A model generated the notes under the pieces. The model was not told the origin of the DNA. It saw only the letters and a program-made list of their open reading frames with translations, and did no database searches. A stretch of DNA of 64,000 nt from a virus: IMG/VR virus record IMGVR_UViG_3300046170_000289, one strand, 5' to 3'. This document shows positions 1,133 through 53,969 of this stretch, one piece after another (the first letter of the stretch is position 1; every line of letters begins with the position of its first letter). A program made the translations under genes and the position numbers.

Positions 1133-3862
1133 TCAATTTAGCAGTAATGGCAAGCCATAGACCTGATGGGGTCCGAGTCCGCAACCTGTTGCCATGTAAC
1201 CCGTGCCAACACCCGTGTGGATGAGACCAGTGGCAACCTGATTCAAGATGGCACCAGAGGGCACAAATTCAGCAATCACACCAGTAGGAGTTGCAATGAA
1301 GGTTGAGTGGACACCTGCTTGTGATCCCATGATGATGTCATTCATGGATGCAGGCATCGATGTGCCTAAGCAGATCCTAGTCTGTGTTGGTGGTGCAAGA
1401 CCAGGGATAGGAAGGTCAGTAGTGATATCAATGATCGCACCATTCACAAAGGTGAATTGACCAGACAGTGCTTTGAGTGGGTTGAATACTGCAACGATCT
1501 CGAATCTACCACTGTTGAGGAAGGAAGAGATCCAGTTTGCTTCGTTAGTAATCTCACCAGATGCCACGTTTTCAATCGTGTTTGCTTCAGACTTAATAGT
1601 CTGAGCGTTGAATGCTAGTGAGTTAATACCAGTGATCTTAACCTTTGCACCCTGAATACTAACGTCACCAGTGTATGCAATGTCATGATCACCCTCTTTA
1701 CGAGATGCAGACTTCTGCTCTTTCTTATCTTCCAACTTACCTTCCAGTTGACTACCCCATGGCACTCTACCGTGAGCATCTGCCTCAGGATGGAAAGGAA
1801 TCTCATCAACAGGATAGAAGTGACCACCAGGCAATGCCTTGAAGTATTGATCACGCTCCTGTTGCTGAATGTGGACCATGTTAATCATGTCATTCTTCTT
1901 CTTGGTAGAAGACTTATCAGCACCAGCAGTATCAATAGAAGATGTAACGTCTGTGCCCTGTTGAGCAATCTTAGTTTGCTTAGCATCAGTACGATCAGTT
2001 ACTTTGATTGCCTGAGCATCAAGGTCACTCTTTGCTTGAGTCTTATCTGCCTTCTTACTTGATCCCTTAGACTTTGCTTGAGGACCCTGAGATGCGTTGT
2101 CATTCTTAGATCCTGTCACTTCCTCATGATAGTTACCCATGACTTTCAGATAGAAGTCACCCTCAACTGTCAACACATAGTTACCTTTAATGGTCTCACA
2201 CTTGTCCTTAGCAATGATCTTAGTCTCATTGTTAGGGACATTCTTGTGCTCGTTACCATGGGCATCTTGGAATGTAGAAACACCACCAGGACCCTGTTTG
2301 ATTTGCTTCTCAATACCAGGGGTGGCATCGTTGATCTCCTTAGCACCATTTAGTTGGGTAACAACCTCCATGAGGTTTGTATTGATGCCAGTAAACATCT
2401 TATCGATGTAACTACCACTACCACCTTTACCAGTGATACCATCATCAAAACTAGAGAATGGTGTGCCAACGATTGCTTCATTAATATTGCCACATTCCGT
2501 GGTCCCGATCAACGGATACCACGCCTTTGATTTCGGTCGTTTAATCTTCCTCCCGCAATCCTTCTTGAAGAACATGCTGAGGAGAGCAAACAGAAGTTTG
2601 ATCAAACCTGCCCAGTTAAGAGAAGTAAAGTCAAACTCAAAGATCGATGTTACTGCATCTCCAAGTGATCTTGCTGCTCCAGCAATACCCTTTGCCATAT
2701 CAACAGCAGCAATCACGTCTCCAGCAATATCTTTAACGCGATTCATCGTCTTAGTGATACCACTAAGGATACGATTCGTAACACCCTTAACAGCAGAGTC
2801 AACACCCTTAAGTTTATCAGCAATCTTATCTACAATCTGCGTCGCTATATTATTAGCGAACGCAGAGACATCCGATATTGCGGCTTGCACTAGCCCCAAC
2901 CACATCGGTTTCTTCATGCAGAAGATATCAAAGATCATCTCAAGAAACATCATGATTGTGTTGATCACAACCAGAGGGACGAAACTAGAAATGATTTGCA
3001 CAATCTTACCAACAACCTCAGCAATGAGTTTGGCAAGCATTTCCTTCAGTGGTGCAAGAATACCAGCGATACCACCAGCAAGGAAATTCATGATCTTACC
3101 CATGTGCTCCATCACCTTATCGCCTGCAACCTTCTTACCCGTTGCAAGGGAGATGAATCCAGAAGGACCACTAGCAAGAGTCGCTGCCATGTTACCGAGC
3201 TCAGTCAGCTGACGCTCTAGGTCAATCGAGAATCCTTCACCACCAGCACCAGCAACACCATCAGCAATCGATTGCTTCTCTACAGGAGGTTTAGCAGGAT
3301 TGGTAACAGCATTACCAGGCAGAGTTTCTTCAGCAGCAGAGATAGCACCGCGTGCTTCTTCACCACCTGCCTGCCCAGGTTGTGTAGGCGTGGATGTCTG
3401 CTTCTTCGGCATTGGATTGCCGTCGTTTCTTTCGTTACCTGCTAAGTCTTTTTTCTGAGGTGAATCAGTTTTCAACTCTTCTGCAACTGTGCCATCAGCA
3501 GCAGTCGTTTTCTTCTTAGGATCTTCCTTTGTTTGGAATCCACGGAATGCACCCATGACAATAGGCAACTGTGCCTCATCACCATCAAGGAAGAATCCCA
3601 TGACCCATGCGCCAGGTTGCAACCCAGTGGTGGATCCAGTACTTTTAATCTGTGCCTTATCACATGGCAGCAAGACCTGTGCCCAGGGCAGCACTTCTGT
3701 AGGCAGCTCTTTGGTGTATGCCTGCTTTGCCTTGTGACCAGTATACCAACCAAGAATACGCACTTGGACACGACCGATCTCAGAGGGGTCCTTGATATTC
3801 TCAACTTCCCCGATCCACCAAGTGTAACCGTCCCTTCCTAGGTAATCAGTGCGTTCTCTCAT
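1133..3862 (-). CDS. gp5: baseplate hub/spike protein gp5 (OB-fold N-terminus)
   Basis: WWIGEVENIKDPSEIGRVQVRILGWY..LPWAQVL..GAWVMGFFLDGDEAQLPIVMG is the T4 gp5 OB domain; later beta-helix-like repeats (ETIKGNYVLTVEGDFYLKVMGNYHEEV). Confidence 0.9.
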   Translation of the reverse strand: MRERTDYLGRDGYTWWIGEVENIKDPSEIGRVQVRILGWYTGHKAKQAYTKELPTEVLPWAQVLLPCDKAQIKSTGSTTGLQPGAWVMGFFLDGDEAQLPIVMGAFRGFQTKEDPKKKTTAADGTVAEELKTDSPQKKDLAGNERNDGNPMPKKQTSTPTQPGQAGGEEARGAISAAEETLPGNAVTNPAKPPVEKQSIADGVAGAGGEGFSIDLERQLTELGNMAATLASGPSGFISLATGKKVAGDKVMEHMGKIMNFLAGGIAGILAPLKEMLAKLIAEVVGKIVQIISSFVPLVVINTIMMFLEMIFDIFCMKKPMWLGLVQAAISDVSAFANNIATQIVDKIADKLKGVDSAVKGVTNRILSGITKTMNRVKDIAGDVIAAVDMAKGIAGAARSLGDAVTSIFEFDFTSLNWAGLIKLLFALLSMFFKKDCGRKIKRPKSKAWYPLIGTTECGNINEAIVGTPFSSFDDGITGKGGSGSYIDKMFTGINTNLMEVVTQLNGAKEINDATPGIEKQIKQGPGGVSTFQDAHGNEHKNVPNNETKIIAKDKCETIKGNYVLTVEGDFYLKVMGNYHEEVTGSKNDNASQGPQAKSKGSSKKADKTQAKSDLDAQAIKVTDRTDAKQTKIAQQGTDVTSSIDTAGADKSSTKKKNDMINMVHIQQQERDQYFKALPGGHFYPVDEIPFHPEADAHGRVPWGSQLEGKLEDKKEQKSASRKEGDHDIAYTGDVSIQGAKVKITGINSLAFNAQTIKSEANTIENVASGEITNEANWISSFLNSGRFEIVAVFNPLKALSGQFTFVNGAIIDITTDLPIPGLAPPTQTRICLGTSMPASMNDIIMGSQAGVHSTFIATPTGVIAEFVPSGAILNQVATGLIHTGVGTGYMATGCGLGPHQVYGLPLLLN

Positions 3863-47410: not shown

Positions 47411-48235
47411 TCAAGACCCGAAGGTCACAGTTGCAGCACCATCAGTGATCACTTCTTCTGTGCCACCTGCTGAGGTAATCTTGACGCGATACTTGTAACC
47501 GTCCAGAGCGTCGCTAGCGAGGCCACTGTAAGCAAGAGTTGCGGTCGTGAAGTCTGCATAGGTGATACCTGTGTCAAGTCCAGCAGTGATGTTAGTCCAC
47601 TTCTTGGTAGAGCTAGCAGTCTGACGTTGCCAGACATAAGCAAGTGCTCCAGGTGTTCCTGTGGTAGAAGTGCTGAGCGTAAATGTGCCAGCGCCAGAGG
47701 AAGAAGTAGAAGCAGCAGGTTGTGCAGTAACAGTTACAGCAGATGCAACATCAGCAACGATGGTGTCATCAGCGTCGTCACCAGCAGCACCAGCAGTAGC
47801 ATGGACGAATGCAATGCACTCAGCCTTATGCTTGGTGTCTCCAGCAGCGGTGGTGTATGTGCGATACTGCCACCAACCAGGACCAGTGATACCGCGAGAC
47901 TTATTCTCAGCGAGTGACATCTCAGTGGTGTCAACAAATACGAGATCGTATGAGTTGCTATCGCCACCTTTGATTACATACTCAGCAACCGCTTTAGGTG
48001 CAGTCCTACGGACAGCGCCAGCGAGTGCAGCAGCAGTGCTACCTGCGTATGCTTTGTGCAATTCGATTGCAGTAGTGCTAGTAACTTCTTTAACGATGTA
48101 TGCAACGTTAGAGAGCTCTAGAATGTCGCCCACGACGACAGTATCCGCAGCGTTTTTCGTAACAGTGGCGTCACCATTGGTGACCGCTACATTGTTGGCG
48201 AAGGTTGCGGCATCAATTTTTCCAAATACAGCCAT
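47411..48235 (-). CDS. virion structural protein with C-terminal Ig-like domain
   Basis: Late promoter upstream; PGWW motif; TAQPA..AYVWQ..DGYKYRVKIT. Confidence 0.75.
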   Translation of the reverse strand: MAVFGKIDAATFANNVAVTNGDATVTKNAADTVVVGDILELSNVAYIVKEVTSTTAIELHKAYAGSTAAALAGAVRRTAPKAVAEYVIKGGDSNSYDLVFVDTTEMSLAENKSRGITGPGWWQYRTYTTAAGDTKHKAECIAFVHATAGAAGDDADDTIVADVASAVTVTAQPAASTSSSGAGTFTLSTSTTGTPGALAYVWQRQTASSTKKWTNITAGLDTGITYADFTTATLAYSGLASDALDGYKYRVKITSAGGTEEVITDGAATVTFGS

Positions 48236-48269: not shown

Positions 48270-48277
48270 TATTTATA
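48270..48277 (-). promoter_or_regulatory. T4-type late promoter
   Basis: Exact TATAAATA. Confidence 0.7.
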
Positions 48278-48492: not shown

Positions 48493-48882
48493 TTACTTCC
48501 CGCCTGCCTTCTTTCTATCGAAATCGATAGTAGCTTGCATCATCTTCGCCTTCATGCGCTCCTTGGCAGCCTTCTTAGCAGCGTCGTCTGCTACGTTGTC
48601 AGCTTTAGGTGCAGCAGCAGGGGGATCGCATTCTTCTTTCTTGACATCCTGACCAGGCTCATACCATTTGCCGTCGCCGTCAGAGTCTTGCCAACGCTTG
48701 CCTGCTTTCGCAGCTTTGATGTGTTTGTCTTTCTTTTTGGCAGCTTCCTTGAGTGCTTCCACACTACTAAGGATTCTACTTCTCAAATGTTCAGACATAA
48801 GGTCCTCTTTTCTTGGATTGATGGTGACATTTCCTTTTTTGGTTGTCTTCAGAGATGTTTCTTTATGACCGATAGGCTTCAT
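48493..48882 (-). CDS. K/E/A-rich putative internal head protein
   Basis: KRWQDSDGDGKWYEPGQDVKKEE; late promoter upstream. Confidence 0.6.
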   Translation of the reverse strand: MKPIGHKETSLKTTKKGNVTINPRKEDLMSEHLRSRILSSVEALKEAAKKKDKHIKAAKAGKRWQDSDGDGKWYEPGQDVKKEECDPPAAAPKADNVADDAAKKAAKERMKAKMMQATIDFDRKKAGGK

Positions 48883-49754
48883 TCCATCTCCCCCATCTTT
48901 TGCAATTCCGCTTCAGTAAACAATCCTGAGTCGGATAGTTTATTTATAAAGTCCTCATTCTTTGCTTTGAGGTTTGCTTTACGCATTTGCAATTCTGCGC
49001 GACCGCCCTTGTCCATTCTACCTTGTGCCTTTGGTTTCTTAGAACCACCTGCAGGTTGTGGACCAGCACCACCATCATCAACTCTTCTACCATGAGAGTA
49101 CTTTGCACCACTCCCTTTAGAATCACCAGAGACCATCTTGCCACCCTGTGAGCGACCGTCCTGATACTCTTTCTCACTCTGTCCGTGCTTACCTTTATAG
49201 AGCTCTGTCACGTCTTCTTCTTTGACACAGTTAGGGACATCTTTGCCGCCCTTCTTCTTAGTGCCACTTGCTTTGTATCCGTCCCAACACTTGCTAGCAC
49301 CCACATTCTTGCGTGCTTGCTTGAGACCTTCAAGCATTTCTTGATGGAGATCATCGATATCAATACCGACCACTTCTTCTTTAGTGGTCACACCGAGGTC
49401 AGCAGCATCTCTCGCTGACTTCTCACCTTTCTTACCGACAACAATGTAGCGACCGTCTGCCTTCTTACCAGTGATGAGCATAGAGTCACCACCTGATTGG
49501 ACAACACGACCAACATTTCGATCATCCTTATACTCTGCCTTCTTCTTGGAGACAGTGTTACGATCAACTTTGAATCCTGCATAGCCTTCAATTGTAGGCT
49601 CGTAAGCATCGAATGCTTCCATCACTTTCATGACACCTGTGTGGAGTCTCTGTGATTTGGGAAGAGTATCTTCTTCGATTGCCTTGAGGATATATGCCTG
49701 CTCAGTGGGATTGTAATCCATGAGTGCCGCAGACACCAGCATTTCTAACGTCAT
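48879..49754 (-). CDS. putative internal head protein (291 aa)
   Basis: KCWDGYKASGTKKKGGKDVPNCVKEE motif; charged low complexity. Confidence 0.65.
   Translation of the reverse strand: MTLEMLVSAALMDYNPTEQAYILKAIEEDTLPKSQRLHTGVMKVMEAFDAYEPTIEGYAGFKVDRNTVSKKKAEYKDDRNVGRVVQSGGDSMLITGKKADGRYIVVGKKGEKSARDAADLGVTTKEEVVGIDIDDLHQEMLEGLKQARKNVGASKCWDGYKASGTKKKGGKDVPNCVKEEDVTELYKGKHGQSEKEYQDGRSQGGKMVSGDSKGSGAKYSHGRRVDDGGAGPQPAGGSKKPKAQGRMDKGGRAELQMRKANLKAKNEDFINKLSDSGLFTEAELQKMGEME
48941..48948 (-). promoter_or_regulatory. T4-type late promoter
   Basis: Exact TATAAATA. Confidence 0.65.
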
Positions 49755-49784: not shown

Positions 49785-50900
49785 CTATTTAGTTTGAGCA
49801 GATTTTCTGAAATCTGTGAATTTAATTGTCTTCTGACCAGGGGTCATGTCCTGAAGTGCTTGACGATAGCGATCAGTCCCTGCTTTCCAGGTGTTACCAC
49901 TGCCATCATCGGCACTGTAGTTACTCTGATCCTTAGTGGTGTCAGCAGCAACCTCTTGTGCATGACTAAGATCATCTGGTCCTAGTTGTGCAACTTCAGT
50001 GATGTGTTGTAACCAGCAGCGATGCTCACCACCCCAACCATCACGCATGATGATGTAGTTAGTGCCACGATGAGCAACCTTACCACGGATACCACTGTCA
50101 TCATGCTCTACAATTGCACCCACCTTGTAGATGTGGTTGAGCATATAGTGATCACGGAAGGCATCGAAGTCAAGTTTAGGAGCGTATGACCACACAGATT
50201 CGTGGACAGACTCACCCTTCTTACCCTTCTTCGCTTTAGGTGGAGGTGTCATCCCTTGGATAACATCACCCATCAGTTTCTTAGAGTCCTTGTATCCACC
50301 AGTCCCAAGATGGAATGATTCGTGATCTCCCCCTTGGGCATGTTTCCGCATTGCTGATGCTGACAGATTTTCGATAGGGTCATCACTATCAGTAGCACGA
50401 GCACCTGCAGACTTAATGTTAATAGACTTGAAGTCATAGTGCATACCATTATATTTGTTAGCAAGAGTTTCAAACTCTTTCACACGGTCATCTCCGACCA
50501 CCATAGTGACATGCTCATGTCCCTCATCATGGAGGTCACGAAGAATGTCAAAGATATTTCTATGTGCTTCGTTGTTTTGGATAGCATCCTTGTGCCCCTT
50601 AAACATCTTACGCATATGATCCACCTTCTGATGTGCAGTCAGTGGATTCTTCTTATGATCTTGTGATCTAGAAGGGTAGATACGATAGTTACCTGAGTCA
50701 CCACCATGTGCCTTGACTGCATCAAGGAGTTTACCATGACCAGCATGGGGTGGGTTAAACCTACCGAAGGTGATAGCAACATGCTTATCATCTAACTTTG
50801 CTTGGGCAGCAGGAGACTTCCCCTTATTAGAAGTGGAAGGTTTCTTAGCAGCAGGCTTTGCTGCAGCTGCTGCCTCCCTGATAAATTGAATAAATCTCAT
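49785..50900 (-). CDS. HxGH nucleotidyltransferase (cytidylyltransferase-like)
   Basis: ITFGRFNPPHAGH, SRSQDHKKNPL, VVGDDRV, SASAMR; ATGA coupling to upstream gene. Confidence 0.88.
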   Translation of the reverse strand: MRFIQFIREAAAAAKPAAKKPSTSNKGKSPAAQAKLDDKHVAITFGRFNPPHAGHGKLLDAVKAHGGDSGNYRIYPSRSQDHKKNPLTAHQKVDHMRKMFKGHKDAIQNNEAHRNIFDILRDLHDEGHEHVTMVVGDDRVKEFETLANKYNGMHYDFKSINIKSAGARATDSDDPIENLSASAMRKHAQGGDHESFHLGTGGYKDSKKLMGDVIQGMTPPPKAKKGKKGESVHESVWSYAPKLDFDAFRDHYMLNHIYKVGAIVEHDDSGIRGKVAHRGTNYIIMRDGWGGEHRCWLQHITEVAQLGPDDLSHAQEVAADTTKDQSNYSADDGSGNTWKAGTDRYRQALQDMTPGQKTIKFTDFRKSAQTK

Positions 50901-52096
50901 TTGCCCCAATCTTTTGCGACGGTGAAGTTTGCTCGTGAAAACTCTAGACGATCAACAAGTTTGATTGCTTGTCCATCCATGATTGCTACAAATCCTTCTG
51001 GACTTGTGACACGGTATCCTTTCTCGTCTTCCAAGAAAGTACCCACGCCTTCAATCTTTGTAAGTTTATTTATCACTTGCTCTTTTGCAGCGATAAGGTC
51101 CTTGAATCCAGTAAATGTATGGATCATTACAGACTTATTATTATTTAGGTAAGCGAGAGCGTCTACCTTACGACGCTTCCACTCTTCCTGTGACTTCTCA
51201 GTCTTTTTCTTCTTGATCTCATCGTCATATTTCTTGGTCACAAAGTTAACATAACCAGTAGCAATGCCCTCTGCAGAGGGGACAGTGCCACCACGAATGA
51301 CTTGGTTGAAGTAGATCTTGAAGAGAGCAGGAGGTGCAAAGGTCTGTGGTCCACCTGCCTTCTGGATCTCATCTAGAAACTTCTTACCCTTAGCAAGACT
51401 ACGCTGTGCCTTACCGATAGTGCCATTGAGTTTGCTGATCTCACCTGGTGCAAGGTTTGCAATGCCATTGGTATTCTGGAAGGTGGAGGAGAAGACTGCA
51501 ACGTCTTTGACACCCTGCATACCAGATACATCAACACCGAAACCAGCACTCATATCACCAATGGAGGATCCACTGTAGGAGGTGTGGAATACAATGCCCA
51601 ACTTAGACTTAGCAACCTTAGCACCTAACTCAGAGTGCTTAGGAATCACATAGGTAATGGTGTTAGGTTTGAAGTTGTAGCATGGTTGACCACGCATGGC
51701 GATGACGTTAGGTCTCTTGGTATAGAGAAGGTCACCCTGCACAACACCTTTGATAGGAAGTTTCTTTAACTCCTTGAGGCACTGCTTCAGGATGTCAGCG
51801 ATTGCACCACCAGGATAGTGGAAGTCAATAAACTCATCAGTGTAACAAATCTTAGGAGCAGTCTTATTGAAGACTGACTTGGTGCCAACGAAAAACTCTC
51901 CTGTCTCAGGATCTGTGCCGCAAATGATAGCAGGAGCACCGTCCCACTTCACAGTCACCTTGGTGTTGTTGCCACCCTTACCTGTGGTGAGCATGTCACG
52001 AAGAGACTCTAGGAATCTAACAGCGTTGGTAGCGCCAGCAGATCCTTGGTTGAAGATGTCGTCTTCTAGGTGCTCTAGGTGTGTGTTTTTTGCCAT
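50897..52096 (-). CDS. conserved phage protein with ligase-like nucleotidyltransferase motifs (DUF6267-like)
   Basis: TVKWDG, VVQGDLL, GIVFH, PEGFV, IKLV. Confidence 0.7.
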   Translation of the reverse strand: MAKNTHLEHLEDDIFNQGSAGATNAVRFLESLRDMLTTGKGGNNTKVTVKWDGAPAIICGTDPETGEFFVGTKSVFNKTAPKICYTDEFIDFHYPGGAIADILKQCLKELKKLPIKGVVQGDLLYTKRPNVIAMRGQPCYNFKPNTITYVIPKHSELGAKVAKSKLGIVFHTSYSGSSIGDMSAGFGVDVSGMQGVKDVAVFSSTFQNTNGIANLAPGEISKLNGTIGKAQRSLAKGKKFLDEIQKAGGPQTFAPPALFKIYFNQVIRGGTVPSAEGIATGYVNFVTKKYDDEIKKKKTEKSQEEWKRRKVDALAYLNNNKSVMIHTFTGFKDLIAAKEQVINKLTKIEGVGTFLEDEKGYRVTSPEGFVAIMDGQAIKLVDRLEFSRANFTVAKDWGK

Positions 52097-52145: not shown

Positions 52146-52934
52146 TTATAAACCTGGCTTCAGCAGGAAGTTAGCATCCTTGTCTAGGTCATGACTGCTC
52201 TTACCGAGTCCTGTTATCTTGATTGCCATCAGGAATGACCACCTTGCATTGGATGAAGAGTTAGTCTTAATACGAATCCTAATACTACTCTCTCTTACAG
52301 AGGAAGAGAATCGTGGACATCCATATCCCTCAGGATCTCTTCCCATATAAAATAATCCTTTACCCTTCACCTGTATATAATAAGTATTCTTTGAGTTATA
52401 ATACTTCTCTACTTCTTGTGCTGCTGCTGATCCCTTTGCTAGAAACTTATCTGGAAATCTTTTAAGATCTAATTTGTGTGCTGCCTTACGTTGATCAAGT
52501 GATGAGCTACTACTCAACGTAAACTTAGCAGGTATATTTTTTTGTGGTTGCCAATGAGAATTCGCTTCTCTTATGATGCCATAGGACTCGGCAATACCAA
52601 TCATTGTCTTTGCTGCTTCTTTCTGAGCAGACGCTTTATTCTTGTCAATGGTAAATTGCATTGACGAAGTATCAAAATCAAAATTCATTTGAGCGAAGTC
52701 GGCAGACAACTTCTCTTTCAACTCAAACTTAATTATCTGATTTTTATATGTGGGTGTCAATTCCAAGTCTGCCTTGGCACTATCTGCTCCTGCAGGATCA
52801 GACACAGTAAAACCTTCCTCTCTCAACTTCTTAATGAGATCCAATTCATACTGGAATCCAGCATTCATCTTTATCTCTTGTGGAGAGGGACCGTCCCCAT
52901 CGTATAATGGCTCTGTGTCGATCTTCTTCGGCAT
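52146..52934 (-). CDS. putative PD-(D/E)XK endonuclease
   Basis: DPAGADSAKADLEL..KFELK pattern; AT-rich relative to flanks. Confidence 0.55.
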   Translation of the reverse strand: MPKKIDTEPLYDGDGPSPQEIKMNAGFQYELDLIKKLREEGFTVSDPAGADSAKADLELTPTYKNQIIKFELKEKLSADFAQMNFDFDTSSMQFTIDKNKASAQKEAAKTMIGIAESYGIIREANSHWQPQKNIPAKFTLSSSSSLDQRKAAHKLDLKRFPDKFLAKGSAAAQEVEKYYNSKNTYYIQVKGKGLFYMGRDPEGYGCPRFSSSVRESSIRIRIKTNSSSNARWSFLMAIKITGLGKSSHDLDKDANFLLKPGL

Positions 52935-53312: not shown

Positions 53313-53969
53313 TTAGATATCTCCAGGAGCACGATTCTCACTGTAGTTAACATCAAACATACCCTCAGGGTAACGTGCTGCCAGTTTCAGTGTGTTGATA
53401 TAGATGATCTCATCAAGTCGCATGTCCAGTGCCATGGCAGCATTGGCAACATACCACATGATATCACCCAACTCTTTCTGCAGGTGCTCTTTGTTAGCAG
53501 TGTCCCAAGGTTTGCCTTGGAATTTAATCTTCTTAACGATCTCCATAAACTCTCCACCCTCTGCACAGATACCTGCAGCAGCAGTGTCAAGACGCTCAAT
53601 GTTACAACCTGCTTTGTGCAACTCAGTGAGTCGCTCCATGTAAGAAACGTAGTCCTTACTAGCAGGAGAAGTAACACGATCTACAAAACTGCAATAGCGA
53701 TCAAGATCCACTTCAAACTTTTCTTTACCACCCCCCGCTGCAGCGGCAGCAGCTTTCTTCTCTGCTGCTTTCTTCTTGGTCTTGGGTGCAACAACGTCTT
53801 CGTTGTTAAGCATCTCCTCAGGGGTCTTGGGAGTAGCGTCAGCGACCTGTTGAGCACGTTGACGCTCGTCTTCAATCTTCTCTTGGGCATCACCAGAGAT
53901 TTTCTCTGCTTGATTTTCCAACTCATAATTAGGGTCACCACTTTGGGTGAAATTGTTAGGGTCGCTCAT
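53313..53969 (-). CDS. mazG: MazG-family nucleotide pyrophosphohydrolase with N-terminal extension
   Basis: AAGICAEGGEFMEIVKKI..KELGDIMWY..NTLKLAARYP. Confidence 0.92.
   Translation of the reverse strand: MSDPNNFTQSGDPNYELENQAEKISGDAQEKIEDERQRAQQVADATPKTPEEMLNNEDVVAPKTKKKAAEKKAAAAAAGGGKEKFEVDLDRYCSFVDRVTSPASKDYVSYMERLTELHKAGCNIERLDTAAAGICAEGGEFMEIVKKIKFQGKPWDTANKEHLQKELGDIMWYVANAAMALDMRLDEIIYINTLKLAARYPEGMFDVNYSENRAPGDI

Follow-up and report, generated by a model that had tools for sequence, protein, structure and literature searches.

The T4-like cyanophages and their relatives on hosts of the SAR11 type and on methylotrophs are among the most abundant of marine viruses, and they have long been noted as being without the DNA ligase of T4. 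A review lists this gene (gp30), along with other quasi-core replication genes, as missing from the marine cyanophages (PMC2993671). Published work treats a nucleotidyltransferase that many of these phages encode only as an auxiliary gene of TagD-like or NMNAT-like kind, and a full-text literature search found no paper that mentions DUF6267, the protein family of its neighbor. Here, we examine these two genes, called A (DUF6267) and B (the transferase), in a 64,000-nucleotide stretch of viral DNA (IMG/VR record IMGVR_UViG_3300046170_000289; hereafter the window) that belongs to a marine T4-like cyanomyovirus (Kyanoviridae). With slightly less than even confidence, we propose that gene A belongs to a family of ligase-type enzymes devoid of an OB domain, and that gene B encodes a coupled partner, of the nicotinamide mononucleotide adenylyltransferase (NMNAT) or phosphopantetheine adenylyltransferase (PPAT) type, which would be loaded into the capsid and would supply the adenylate donor.

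The original prediction had placed two translationally coupled reading frames at this locus, and both are indeed present on the minus strand, with the ATGA overlap legible in the sequence itself (...GGC AAA TGA overlapping ATG AGA TTT). The pair and the two features of gene A on which the argument turns are the following:

50897..52096, minus strand: gene A, DUF6267 protein of 399 residues, a predicted ligase-like covalent nucleotidyltransferase without OB domain (PF19782, E 1.9e-127)

49785..50900, minus strand: gene B, HxGH adenylyltransferase-like protein of 371 residues counted from the ATG (PF01467, E 4.2e-9; phrog_395, E 4e-86)

51947..51949, minus strand: codon of K50, in motif I (K-W-D-G), the lysine predicted to be nucleotidylated; invariant and at the end of strand 45-50

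51053..51466, minus strand: Lys-rich helical insert of gene A, residues 211-348 (138 residues), between motifs IIIa and IV, with helices at 217-346 in the model

Gene A is a full-length member both of Pfam DUF6267 and of phrog_455, and the profile of the latter, 764 positions long, spans gene B as well, a first hint that fused forms exist. An exhaustive HMMER search (E <= 1e-3) recovered DUF6267 homologues in at least 2,599 cluster representatives (clusters at 50% identity), and 102 of these, 33-63% identical to gene A, were aligned to assess conservation. Sixteen positions are invariant in this alignment: H9, K50, D52, G53, G60, P63, F68, F69, K73, D122, Y149, H171, E367, G368, K379, and F386. 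The six covalent nucleotidyltransferase motifs named in the original prediction all fall on conserved positions, with K50, D52, and G53 forming the KxDG signature of motif I, K73 lying in FVGTKS, D122 in QGDL, H171 in GIVFH, E367 and G368 in PEGFV, and K379 in IKLV. Two of these assignments stand in reduced form: motif IIIa could be either GIVFH (H171) or the pair F142/Y149, and motif V retains only the first of its lysines (K379-L-V-D-R383). The alignment also reveals an N-terminal cluster, H6-x-x-H9-x-E11, for which we know of no recognized counterpart in ligases. The protein terminates 20 residues past motif V, where the model places a helix (383-392), and it has no OB domain. This absence sets gene A apart from the DNA ligases and the capping enzymes, and groups its architecture with that of the RNA ligases.

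The AlphaFold2 model of gene A, built with the 102-homologue alignment, has a predicted local distance difference test (pLDDT) of 93.3 and a predicted template-modeling score of 0.91. It consists of a beta-rich core (residues 1-210 and 349-399) interrupted by the all-helical insert 211-348. The motifs lie on beta strands and follow one another as they would in a ligase, with D122 on strand 118-125, F142/Y149 or H171 on 137-152 or 166-175, E367-G368 on 368-373, and K379 on 376-380. When the model was compared by exhaustive structural alignment (VIA) with 48,161 representative chains, 17 ligase chains were matched with Z of 5.4-8.1 over 159-190 aligned residues that extend from model residue 1 to about 390; Z scores of 6-8 are moderate, and the tool warns that such values may be fortuitous and arise from common structural arrangements. 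The top match was the Naegleria RNA ligase NgrRnl (5cot; Z 8.1, 182 residues), followed by fungal Trl1 (7.3), T4 Rnl2 (6.8), T4 Rnl1 (6.7), archaeal Rnl3 (6.5), trypanosome REL1 (6.2), and DNA ligases (5.4-5.9). Every match that covers the core is to a ligase nucleotidyltransferase domain and none is to a capping enzyme; all the nonligase matches are confined to the helical insert and involve helical proteins such as YqeY. A search of BFVD returned first the rows that resemble members of the family (20 at E <= 0.001, many of them unnamed) and after them many viral RNA ligases, the best with an E value of 1.5e-3. The case for a ligase fold is built on three points together: this list of matches is consistent, the catalytic-type residues are invariant, and they lie on the strands where a ligase would have them. 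The fold had been proposed from the motifs alone, and the model and the comparison with known structures, Rnl1 and Rnl2 included, agree with it. On the model, gene A is best read as a new branch of the covalent nucleotidyltransferases of ligase type, distinct in architecture.

Gene B is composed of five parts, an N-terminal helix, a disordered basic linker rich in Ala and Lys, the transferase domain, a beta-barrel and a disordered tail, and its principal features are these:

50874..50900, minus strand: leader MRFIQFIRE (residues 1-9), which resembles the capsid-targeting sequence of T4; the prohead protease is predicted to cut after E9

50235..50786, minus strand: nucleotidyltransferase domain, residues 39-222, with H52-A-G-H55 and S180-A-S-x-x-R185; pLDDT 80-93

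49986..50132, minus strand: small SH3-like beta-barrel, residues ~257-305, with strands at 263-302, bounded by V-H-E234 and I-T-E302

49788..49943, minus strand: conserved C-terminal tail, predicted disordered (pLDDT <50), with consensus DQSNYSADDGSGN..W K.GTD.YR..LQ.MTPGQ

The HAGH tetrad that had suggested an NMNAT- or cytidylyltransferase-type enzyme is conserved, within G46-R-F-N-P-P-H52-A-G-H55, and it is accompanied by the second signature of the family, S180-A-S-x-x-R185. The protein matches the Pfam model CTP_transf_like (PF01467) with 37.1 bits against a cut-off of 21. Its predicted structure (pLDDT 68 overall and 80-93 over residues 39-222) has a Rossmann-like fold for which Foldseek matched PPAT and the nicotinic acid mononucleotide (NaMN) adenylyltransferase NaMNAT equally well (E ~1e-4; template-modeling score by target ~0.64). 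The NCBIfam matches, which are weak, are all to adenylyltransferases for nicotinamide mononucleotide (NMN) or NaMN, at scores far below the NMNAT equivalog cut-offs (TIGR00482, 25.7 vs 112.45 bits; TIGR01526, 19.4 vs 341). Relatives of gene B are annotated as "cytidyltransferase." We rejected a TagD-like role in teichoic acid synthesis, to which some annotations point, since the family matches are all of NMNAT type and the structural ones are PPAT and NaMNAT.

Gene A and gene B are tightly linked. Of the 80 viral-contig loci recovered with the DUF6267 family profile, 54 have the transferase downstream on the same strand and one has it fused; 18 end too soon on the downstream side to be informative, and seven extend for at least 4 kb without it. 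The two are thus adjacent or fused at 55 of the 62 informative loci. According to the gene calls, about half of these 54 neighboring pairs overlap by a few bases, with the ATGA arrangement in 21. Fusion proteins occur in both orders (that of S-PM2 has 591 residues). The co-conservation implied by the term "two-enzyme system" in the original prediction is therefore real. Some public records (Syn1, metaG-MbCM1) label members of the pair as "ribonucleotide reductase alpha subunit" or "NrdB"; these labels look like annotation errors propagated via phrog_4808.

The N-terminus of gene B, MRFIQFIRE|A, resembles the capsid-targeting peptide of the T4 internal proteins. In the T4 genome, ipII and ipIII, both annotated as internal virion proteins, begin with MKTYQEFIAE, and the leader of gene B likewise has about ten residues and ends in an [LI]-x-E site. 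Gene B is the sole real gene with such a leader in the 64-kb window. A strict pattern, applied to the first 20 residues, matched 25 of 54 transferases and 23 of 76 DUF6267 proteins, but only 18 of the 793 other open reading frames of at least 100 residues at the same loci; with a looser pattern at least one partner was tagged in 36 of 50 pairs. DUF6267 in the window and in its closest relatives starts with MAKNTHLEH and is untagged, and most homologues beyond the cyanophage clade are tagged (e.g., MKSFKQFLTE and MKTFKQFICE). The I-x-E site at the end of the leader is kept in all 33 unfused gene B homologues. Together with E234 (29/33) and E302 (33/33), E9 marks one of three domain borders that carry an [LIV]-x-E site, a disposition which, on sequence grounds, would fit processing by a gp21-type protease.

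The leader is also rare in the genome of the related phage S-SZBM1. With a loosened pattern, its 178-kb genome gives six matches, of which three have a leader of the M-[KR]-x-F type: the gene B orthologue and two small genes that lie between the terminase subunit genes, beside a virion protein. These two, genes 191 and 192 (122311-123125; 2812-3626 in locus L102), encode 105 and 165 residues, start with MKSFKSFLSE and MKTFKQYITE, and with leaders so nearly perfect of the T4 type are candidate cyanophage internal proteins.

Two published proteomes bear on the localization of gene B. In purified S-SZBM1 virions, its orthologue (S-SZBM1_140) was detected with two peptides; the list also includes the downstream neighbor 139, and it contains neither 141 (DUF6267) nor 142 (PMC9146016). 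In S-CREM2 virions the transferase ORF154 was detected with three peptides; the authors considered such enzymes common in cyanophage virions and allowed for contamination (PMC10665884). The division into a tagged gene B and an untagged DUF6267 matches the S-SZBM1 proteome.

From these observations, the following scheme can be envisaged. Lys50 of the KWDG motif would accept a nucleotidyl group, most likely adenosine monophosphate (AMP), and pass it to a 5'-phosphate end; attack on the activated end by a neighboring 3'-OH would then seal the break. The helical insert would probably take the substrate-clamping role which in other RNA ligases is held by C- or N-terminal accessory domains. Gene B, translationally coupled to gene A, would work with it and would most likely make or recycle the adenylate donor (NMN plus ATP giving nicotinamide adenine dinucleotide, NAD+). 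Its T4-type leader would direct it into the head, where it would be trimmed after Glu9, and it would be injected with the DNA. Gene A, untagged in this clade, would probably be made only inside the cell.

A number of results weigh against this scheme, in addition to the moderate structural scores and the small number of virion peptides. No sequence method ties DUF6267 to any ligase family. Pfam recognizes in gene A only DUF6267, with no match to PF01068 or PF04679, to the domain Ia, zinc finger, HhH or BRCT modules of NAD+-dependent ligases, or to the Rnl1 and Rnl2 models (PF09511 and PF09414), for both of which the T4 controls were positive. Searches of the PDB sequences with phmmer and with a profile (hmmsearch) found no ligase and matched only low-complexity helical segments. 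Alignment of the DUF6267 profile by hhalign with T4 Rnl1, Rnl2, gp30, and a 30-sequence Rnl2 profile, the last built from a shallow set of homologues (at least 55% identity), gave probabilities below 2%. The sole trace is a local alignment of PEGFVAI..G.AIKLVD with EGYVAVMKDGSHFKIKS of T4 Rnl1, across motifs IV and V. A Foldseek search of the PDB with the gene A model yielded only noise (carbonic anhydrases, Mre11), and the second lysine of motif V is missing. We know of no ligase that requires an HxGH partner. The transferase is elsewhere fused to unrelated enzymes (a P-loop kinase, a RimK ATP-grasp enzyme, a Pol-beta-type domain), and what it has in common with them may be packaging rather than a pathway. 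Finally, Stenotrophomonas phage DLP6 encodes both DUF6267 and a gp30-type ligase, which means that the two are not strictly exclusive.

Except for DLP6, the DUF6267-bearing genomes that we examined (five of six) have no ligase recognized by the models that were run. S-SZBM1, P-TIM40, HTVC008M, Melnitz, and phage C48C1 gave no match to the ATP-dependent DNA ligase (PF01068) or Rnl2 (PF09414) models, and neither S-SZBM1 nor P-TIM40, the two cyanophages on which they were run beside T4, matched the NAD+-dependent DNA ligase (PF01653) or Rnl1 (PF09511) models. As a control, T4 was matched by the Rnl1, Rnl2 and ATP-ligase models; of 14 control genomes, 11 were matched by the model for NAD+-dependent ligases. 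With T4 gp30 as query, tblastn matched 2,644 phage records, and "Synechococcus" is absent from their ten commonest names; DUF6267 is present in 371 Synechococcus phage records. We did not adopt, as a sole reading, DUF6267 as a plain replacement for gp30, since DLP6 has both and DUF6267 lacks an OB domain.

One alternative, which we consider unlikely, is that the locus is a kit for healing and sealing RNA, in which DUF6267 would mend tRNAs of the host or the phage that anticodon nucleases have cut, in the way of T4 Rnl1 with Pnkp, and gene B and other enzymes would prepare the ends. The closest structures are RNA ligases, which likewise have no OB domain, and DLP6 retains a separate DNA ligase. 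Moreover, many uncultured marine relatives have, between the two genes, an adenylate kinase (PF00406, E 1.9e-37) and a P-loop kinase of the AAA_33/zeta type, which resembles polynucleotide kinase (PNK), and a weak Pol-beta-type nucleotidyltransferase either stands there too or is fused to the transferase; HTVC008M, for example, has an AAA_33 kinase between DUF6267 and the transferase. Such partners match the ligase, kinase, and nucleotidyltransferase "syntax" of RNA repair systems. The two kinases stand in tandem at loci L046 (1244-2516) and L047 (8183-10924), the zeta-toxin-like one being fused in L047 to the N-terminus of the transferase protein. In the closest cyanophage genomes, S-SZBM1 and P-TIM40, however, there is neither a 2H phosphoesterase nor an adenylate kinase, and no AAA_33 kinase of the PNK type scores above cut-off. 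In this clade, ends bearing 2',3'-cyclic phosphate and 5'-OH would thus not be healable, which weakens the case for RNA repair here and makes the plain sealing of nicks the more economical activity to propose; moreover, we know of no HxGH enzyme in RNA end healing.

The same accessory enzymes can be read in two ways, either as such a repair module or as polyvalent head cargo, and the latter leads to an alternative to which we accord the same low standing. Gene B by itself would be an injected NMN adenylyltransferase that props up NAD+ against NAD-depleting defences or feeds the NAD+-dependent LigA of the host, DUF6267 would have an unrelated job, and the linkage of the two would reflect common regulation or packaging. 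An NAD+ role has already been proposed by authors of cyanophage papers, the matches of gene B are of NMNAT type, the cyanobacterial host type has LigA, as a control of the ligase search shows, and the tagged member of the pair is the only one seen in S-SZBM1 virions. The transferase also occurs as fusions with many unrelated enzymes (a weak Pol-beta-type domain, the AAA_33 kinase, RimK with a RimB-like protease, and DUF5824), which suggests a polyvalent cargo, and several of its fusion or neighbor partners also bear a capsid-type leader. On the other hand, an association at 55 of 62 loci, with frequent overlaps and both orders of fusion, is stronger than that with any other cargo gene, and the NMNAT equivalog score of gene B is far under its cut-off (25.7 against 112 bits). 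As a separate observation, the fusions at L068 (1734-3788) and L090 (3010-5160) join the transferase to a RimK-type ATP-grasp ligase (PF08443, E 1e-32 to 1e-35) and a RimB-like aspartic protease domain (PF05618), which suggests that glutamylation enzymes are further head cargo.

A bolder form of our own proposal concerns the cofactor. Ligation that depends on NAD+ releases NMN and AMP, and the accessory enzymes most often found with DUF6267 are the NMNAT-like enzyme and, in relatives, adenylate kinase; since these by-products fit these partners, NAD+ is an attractive, if unproven, cofactor for gene A. DUF6267 would then be an unrecognized, NAD+-using strand sealer without OB domain that travels with the enzymes that recharge it, the "missing ligase" of the marine T4-like phages, delivered in part by the capsid. 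The NMNAT-like partner would turn NMN back into NAD+, and in many marine relatives the adjacent adenylate kinase would dispose of the AMP and the PNK-type kinase would make the 5'-phosphate; partial delivery by the capsid would allow breaks in the incoming genome to be sealed at once. In this complete form we judge the idea doubtful, and rank it below the two preceding alternatives. Least probable of all is that DUF6267 seals no strands and instead performs a capping-like 5'-nucleotidylation, nucleotidylates proteins or serves as an inactive scaffold. In favor of this, KxDG is common to capping enzymes, motif V is incomplete, sequence comparison provides no tie to ligases and the H6-x-x-H9-x-E11 cluster has no counterpart known to us in ligases; against it, gene A has no OB domain of the capping-enzyme kind, a catalytic function is suggested by the fact that K50, D122, E367, and K379 never vary, and the structural matches to the core are all ligases.

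In the preferred reading, a ligase-type gene A served by a capsid-loaded gene B, the strand sealed may be RNA or DNA and the cofactor ATP or NAD+, and the linkage of the two genes may reflect a shared pathway or shared packaging. What the original prediction observed is thus confirmed and its interpretation supported in part. Its three functional hypotheses (RNA or tRNA repair, cofactor capping of RNA, and NAD or nucleotide regeneration) can now be weighed against one another; tRNA repair has lost ground in this clade with the lack of a PNK-like kinase and a 2H phosphoesterase, and NAD chemistry is favored by the NMNAT-type matches. Beyond that prediction lie the leader of gene B and the detection of its orthologue in virions, the lack of any other recognizable ligase and a likely nuclease-fold gene upstream.

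The DNA around the pair is 67-80% identical to that of Synechococcus and Prochlorococcus myoviruses. The minus-strand order is DNA polymerase gp43, UvsX, a 2-oxoglutarate-Fe(II) oxygenase, gp41 helicase, MazG, a small open reading frame, one of 262 residues, gene A, gene B, several Lys/Glu-rich reading frames, gp61 primase, and NrdA, as annotated in phages S-SZBM1 and P-TIM40; gene A is situated within the block of replication and recombination genes. The gene directly preceding gene A is:

52146..52934, minus strand: upstream gene of 262 residues, with a probable PD-(D/E)xK (R.HinP1I/Hjc-like) nuclease fold, at the level of a lead

Three weak pointers suggest such a restriction-endonuclease fold, as a lead only: a marginal match to Hjc (E 0.089), a D...E-L-K motif, and, in the ESM Atlas, R.HinP1I as the nearest named cluster (0.93), with a structural template-modeling score of 0.59 to a methylase-R.HinP1I fusion. 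The gene may belong to the A/B module; the upstream genes of distant relatives were too divergent to be aligned reliably with it.

Several other features of the neighborhood deserve mention. Directly downstream of gene B, two Lys/Glu/Gly-rich proteins are encoded on the minus strand (48879-49754 and 48493-48882; phrog_27523 and others), with a motif CWDGYK...GK.VPNCV that recurs across many phrogs. A family designated F0 occupies the position after the transferase in 45 of the loci examined, and S-SZBM1 139, which holds the same position, was detected in virions with four peptides. Exact T4 late-promoter boxes (TATAAATA) occur on the minus strand at 48270-48277, upstream of a 274-residue gene (47411-48235), the counterpart of which in S-SZBM1 was detected as a virion protein, and at 48941-48948, upstream of a 129-residue gene. 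The window has more exact boxes than chance predicts (8 found vs 1.7 expected); those with one mismatch near the pair occur at chance frequency (56 found vs 48 expected), and we therefore make no claim on the timing of expression. The MazG-like pyrophosphatase (53313-53969, minus strand) has an unusually long acidic/basic N-terminal extension of ~120 residues ahead of its MazG domain.

If the proposal is true, a well-studied superfamily would gain a new branch, nearly universal in these phages, and with it a candidate answer to how they seal and repair nucleic acids, as well as an example of injected enzymatic cargo. To this question the present analysis adds the tagged/untagged split, the genome-wide rarity of the leader, the census of ligases and end-healing enzymes, the logic of the by-products and the upstream gene of likely nuclease fold.

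How, then, does this locus compare with the systems already described? With the RNA ligases that have no OB domain (NgrRnl/Rnl5, Trl1, T4 Rnl1, Rnl2, and REL1), gene A has in common the core fold (Z 6.2-8.1 over 159-190 residues), the KxDG lysine motif, the EG-x-V of motif IV with a lysine-bearing strand after it, and the absence of the OB domain itself, and it is T4 Rnl1 whose sequence is most similar across motifs IV and V. It differs from them in that its accessory helical domain is internal, between motifs IIIa and IV, whereas theirs are terminal, in its single motif V lysine and N-terminal H-x-x-H-x-E, in the lack of significant sequence similarity, and in its obligate neighbor, an HxGH transferase. 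With the DNA ligases, T4 gp30 (PF01068) and LigA (PF01653), it shares the core fold (Z 5.4-5.9) and KxDG; compared with the gp30 type it lacks the OB domain and motif VI, and compared with LigA the Ia, zinc-finger, HhH, and BRCT modules. Gene B has the GxFxPxHxGH and SxSxxR motifs and the fold of NadD, NadR, NadM, and CoaD, to which it adds an N-terminal leader, a basic linker of Ala and Lys, the SH3-like barrel and a conserved tail, and its scores are far under the equivalog cut-offs of such enzymes. Its leader is likened, by sequence, to the M-[KR]-x-[FY]-x-x-F-I-x-E type of T4 IPII and IPIII, which, like Alt, are packaged into the head and injected, with ten residues in T4 and nine in gene B. 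Unlike these, gene B is an enzyme of nucleotide chemistry rather than a small basic protein or an ADP-ribosyltransferase, and its ligase-like partner is untagged in this clade and tagged in many others.

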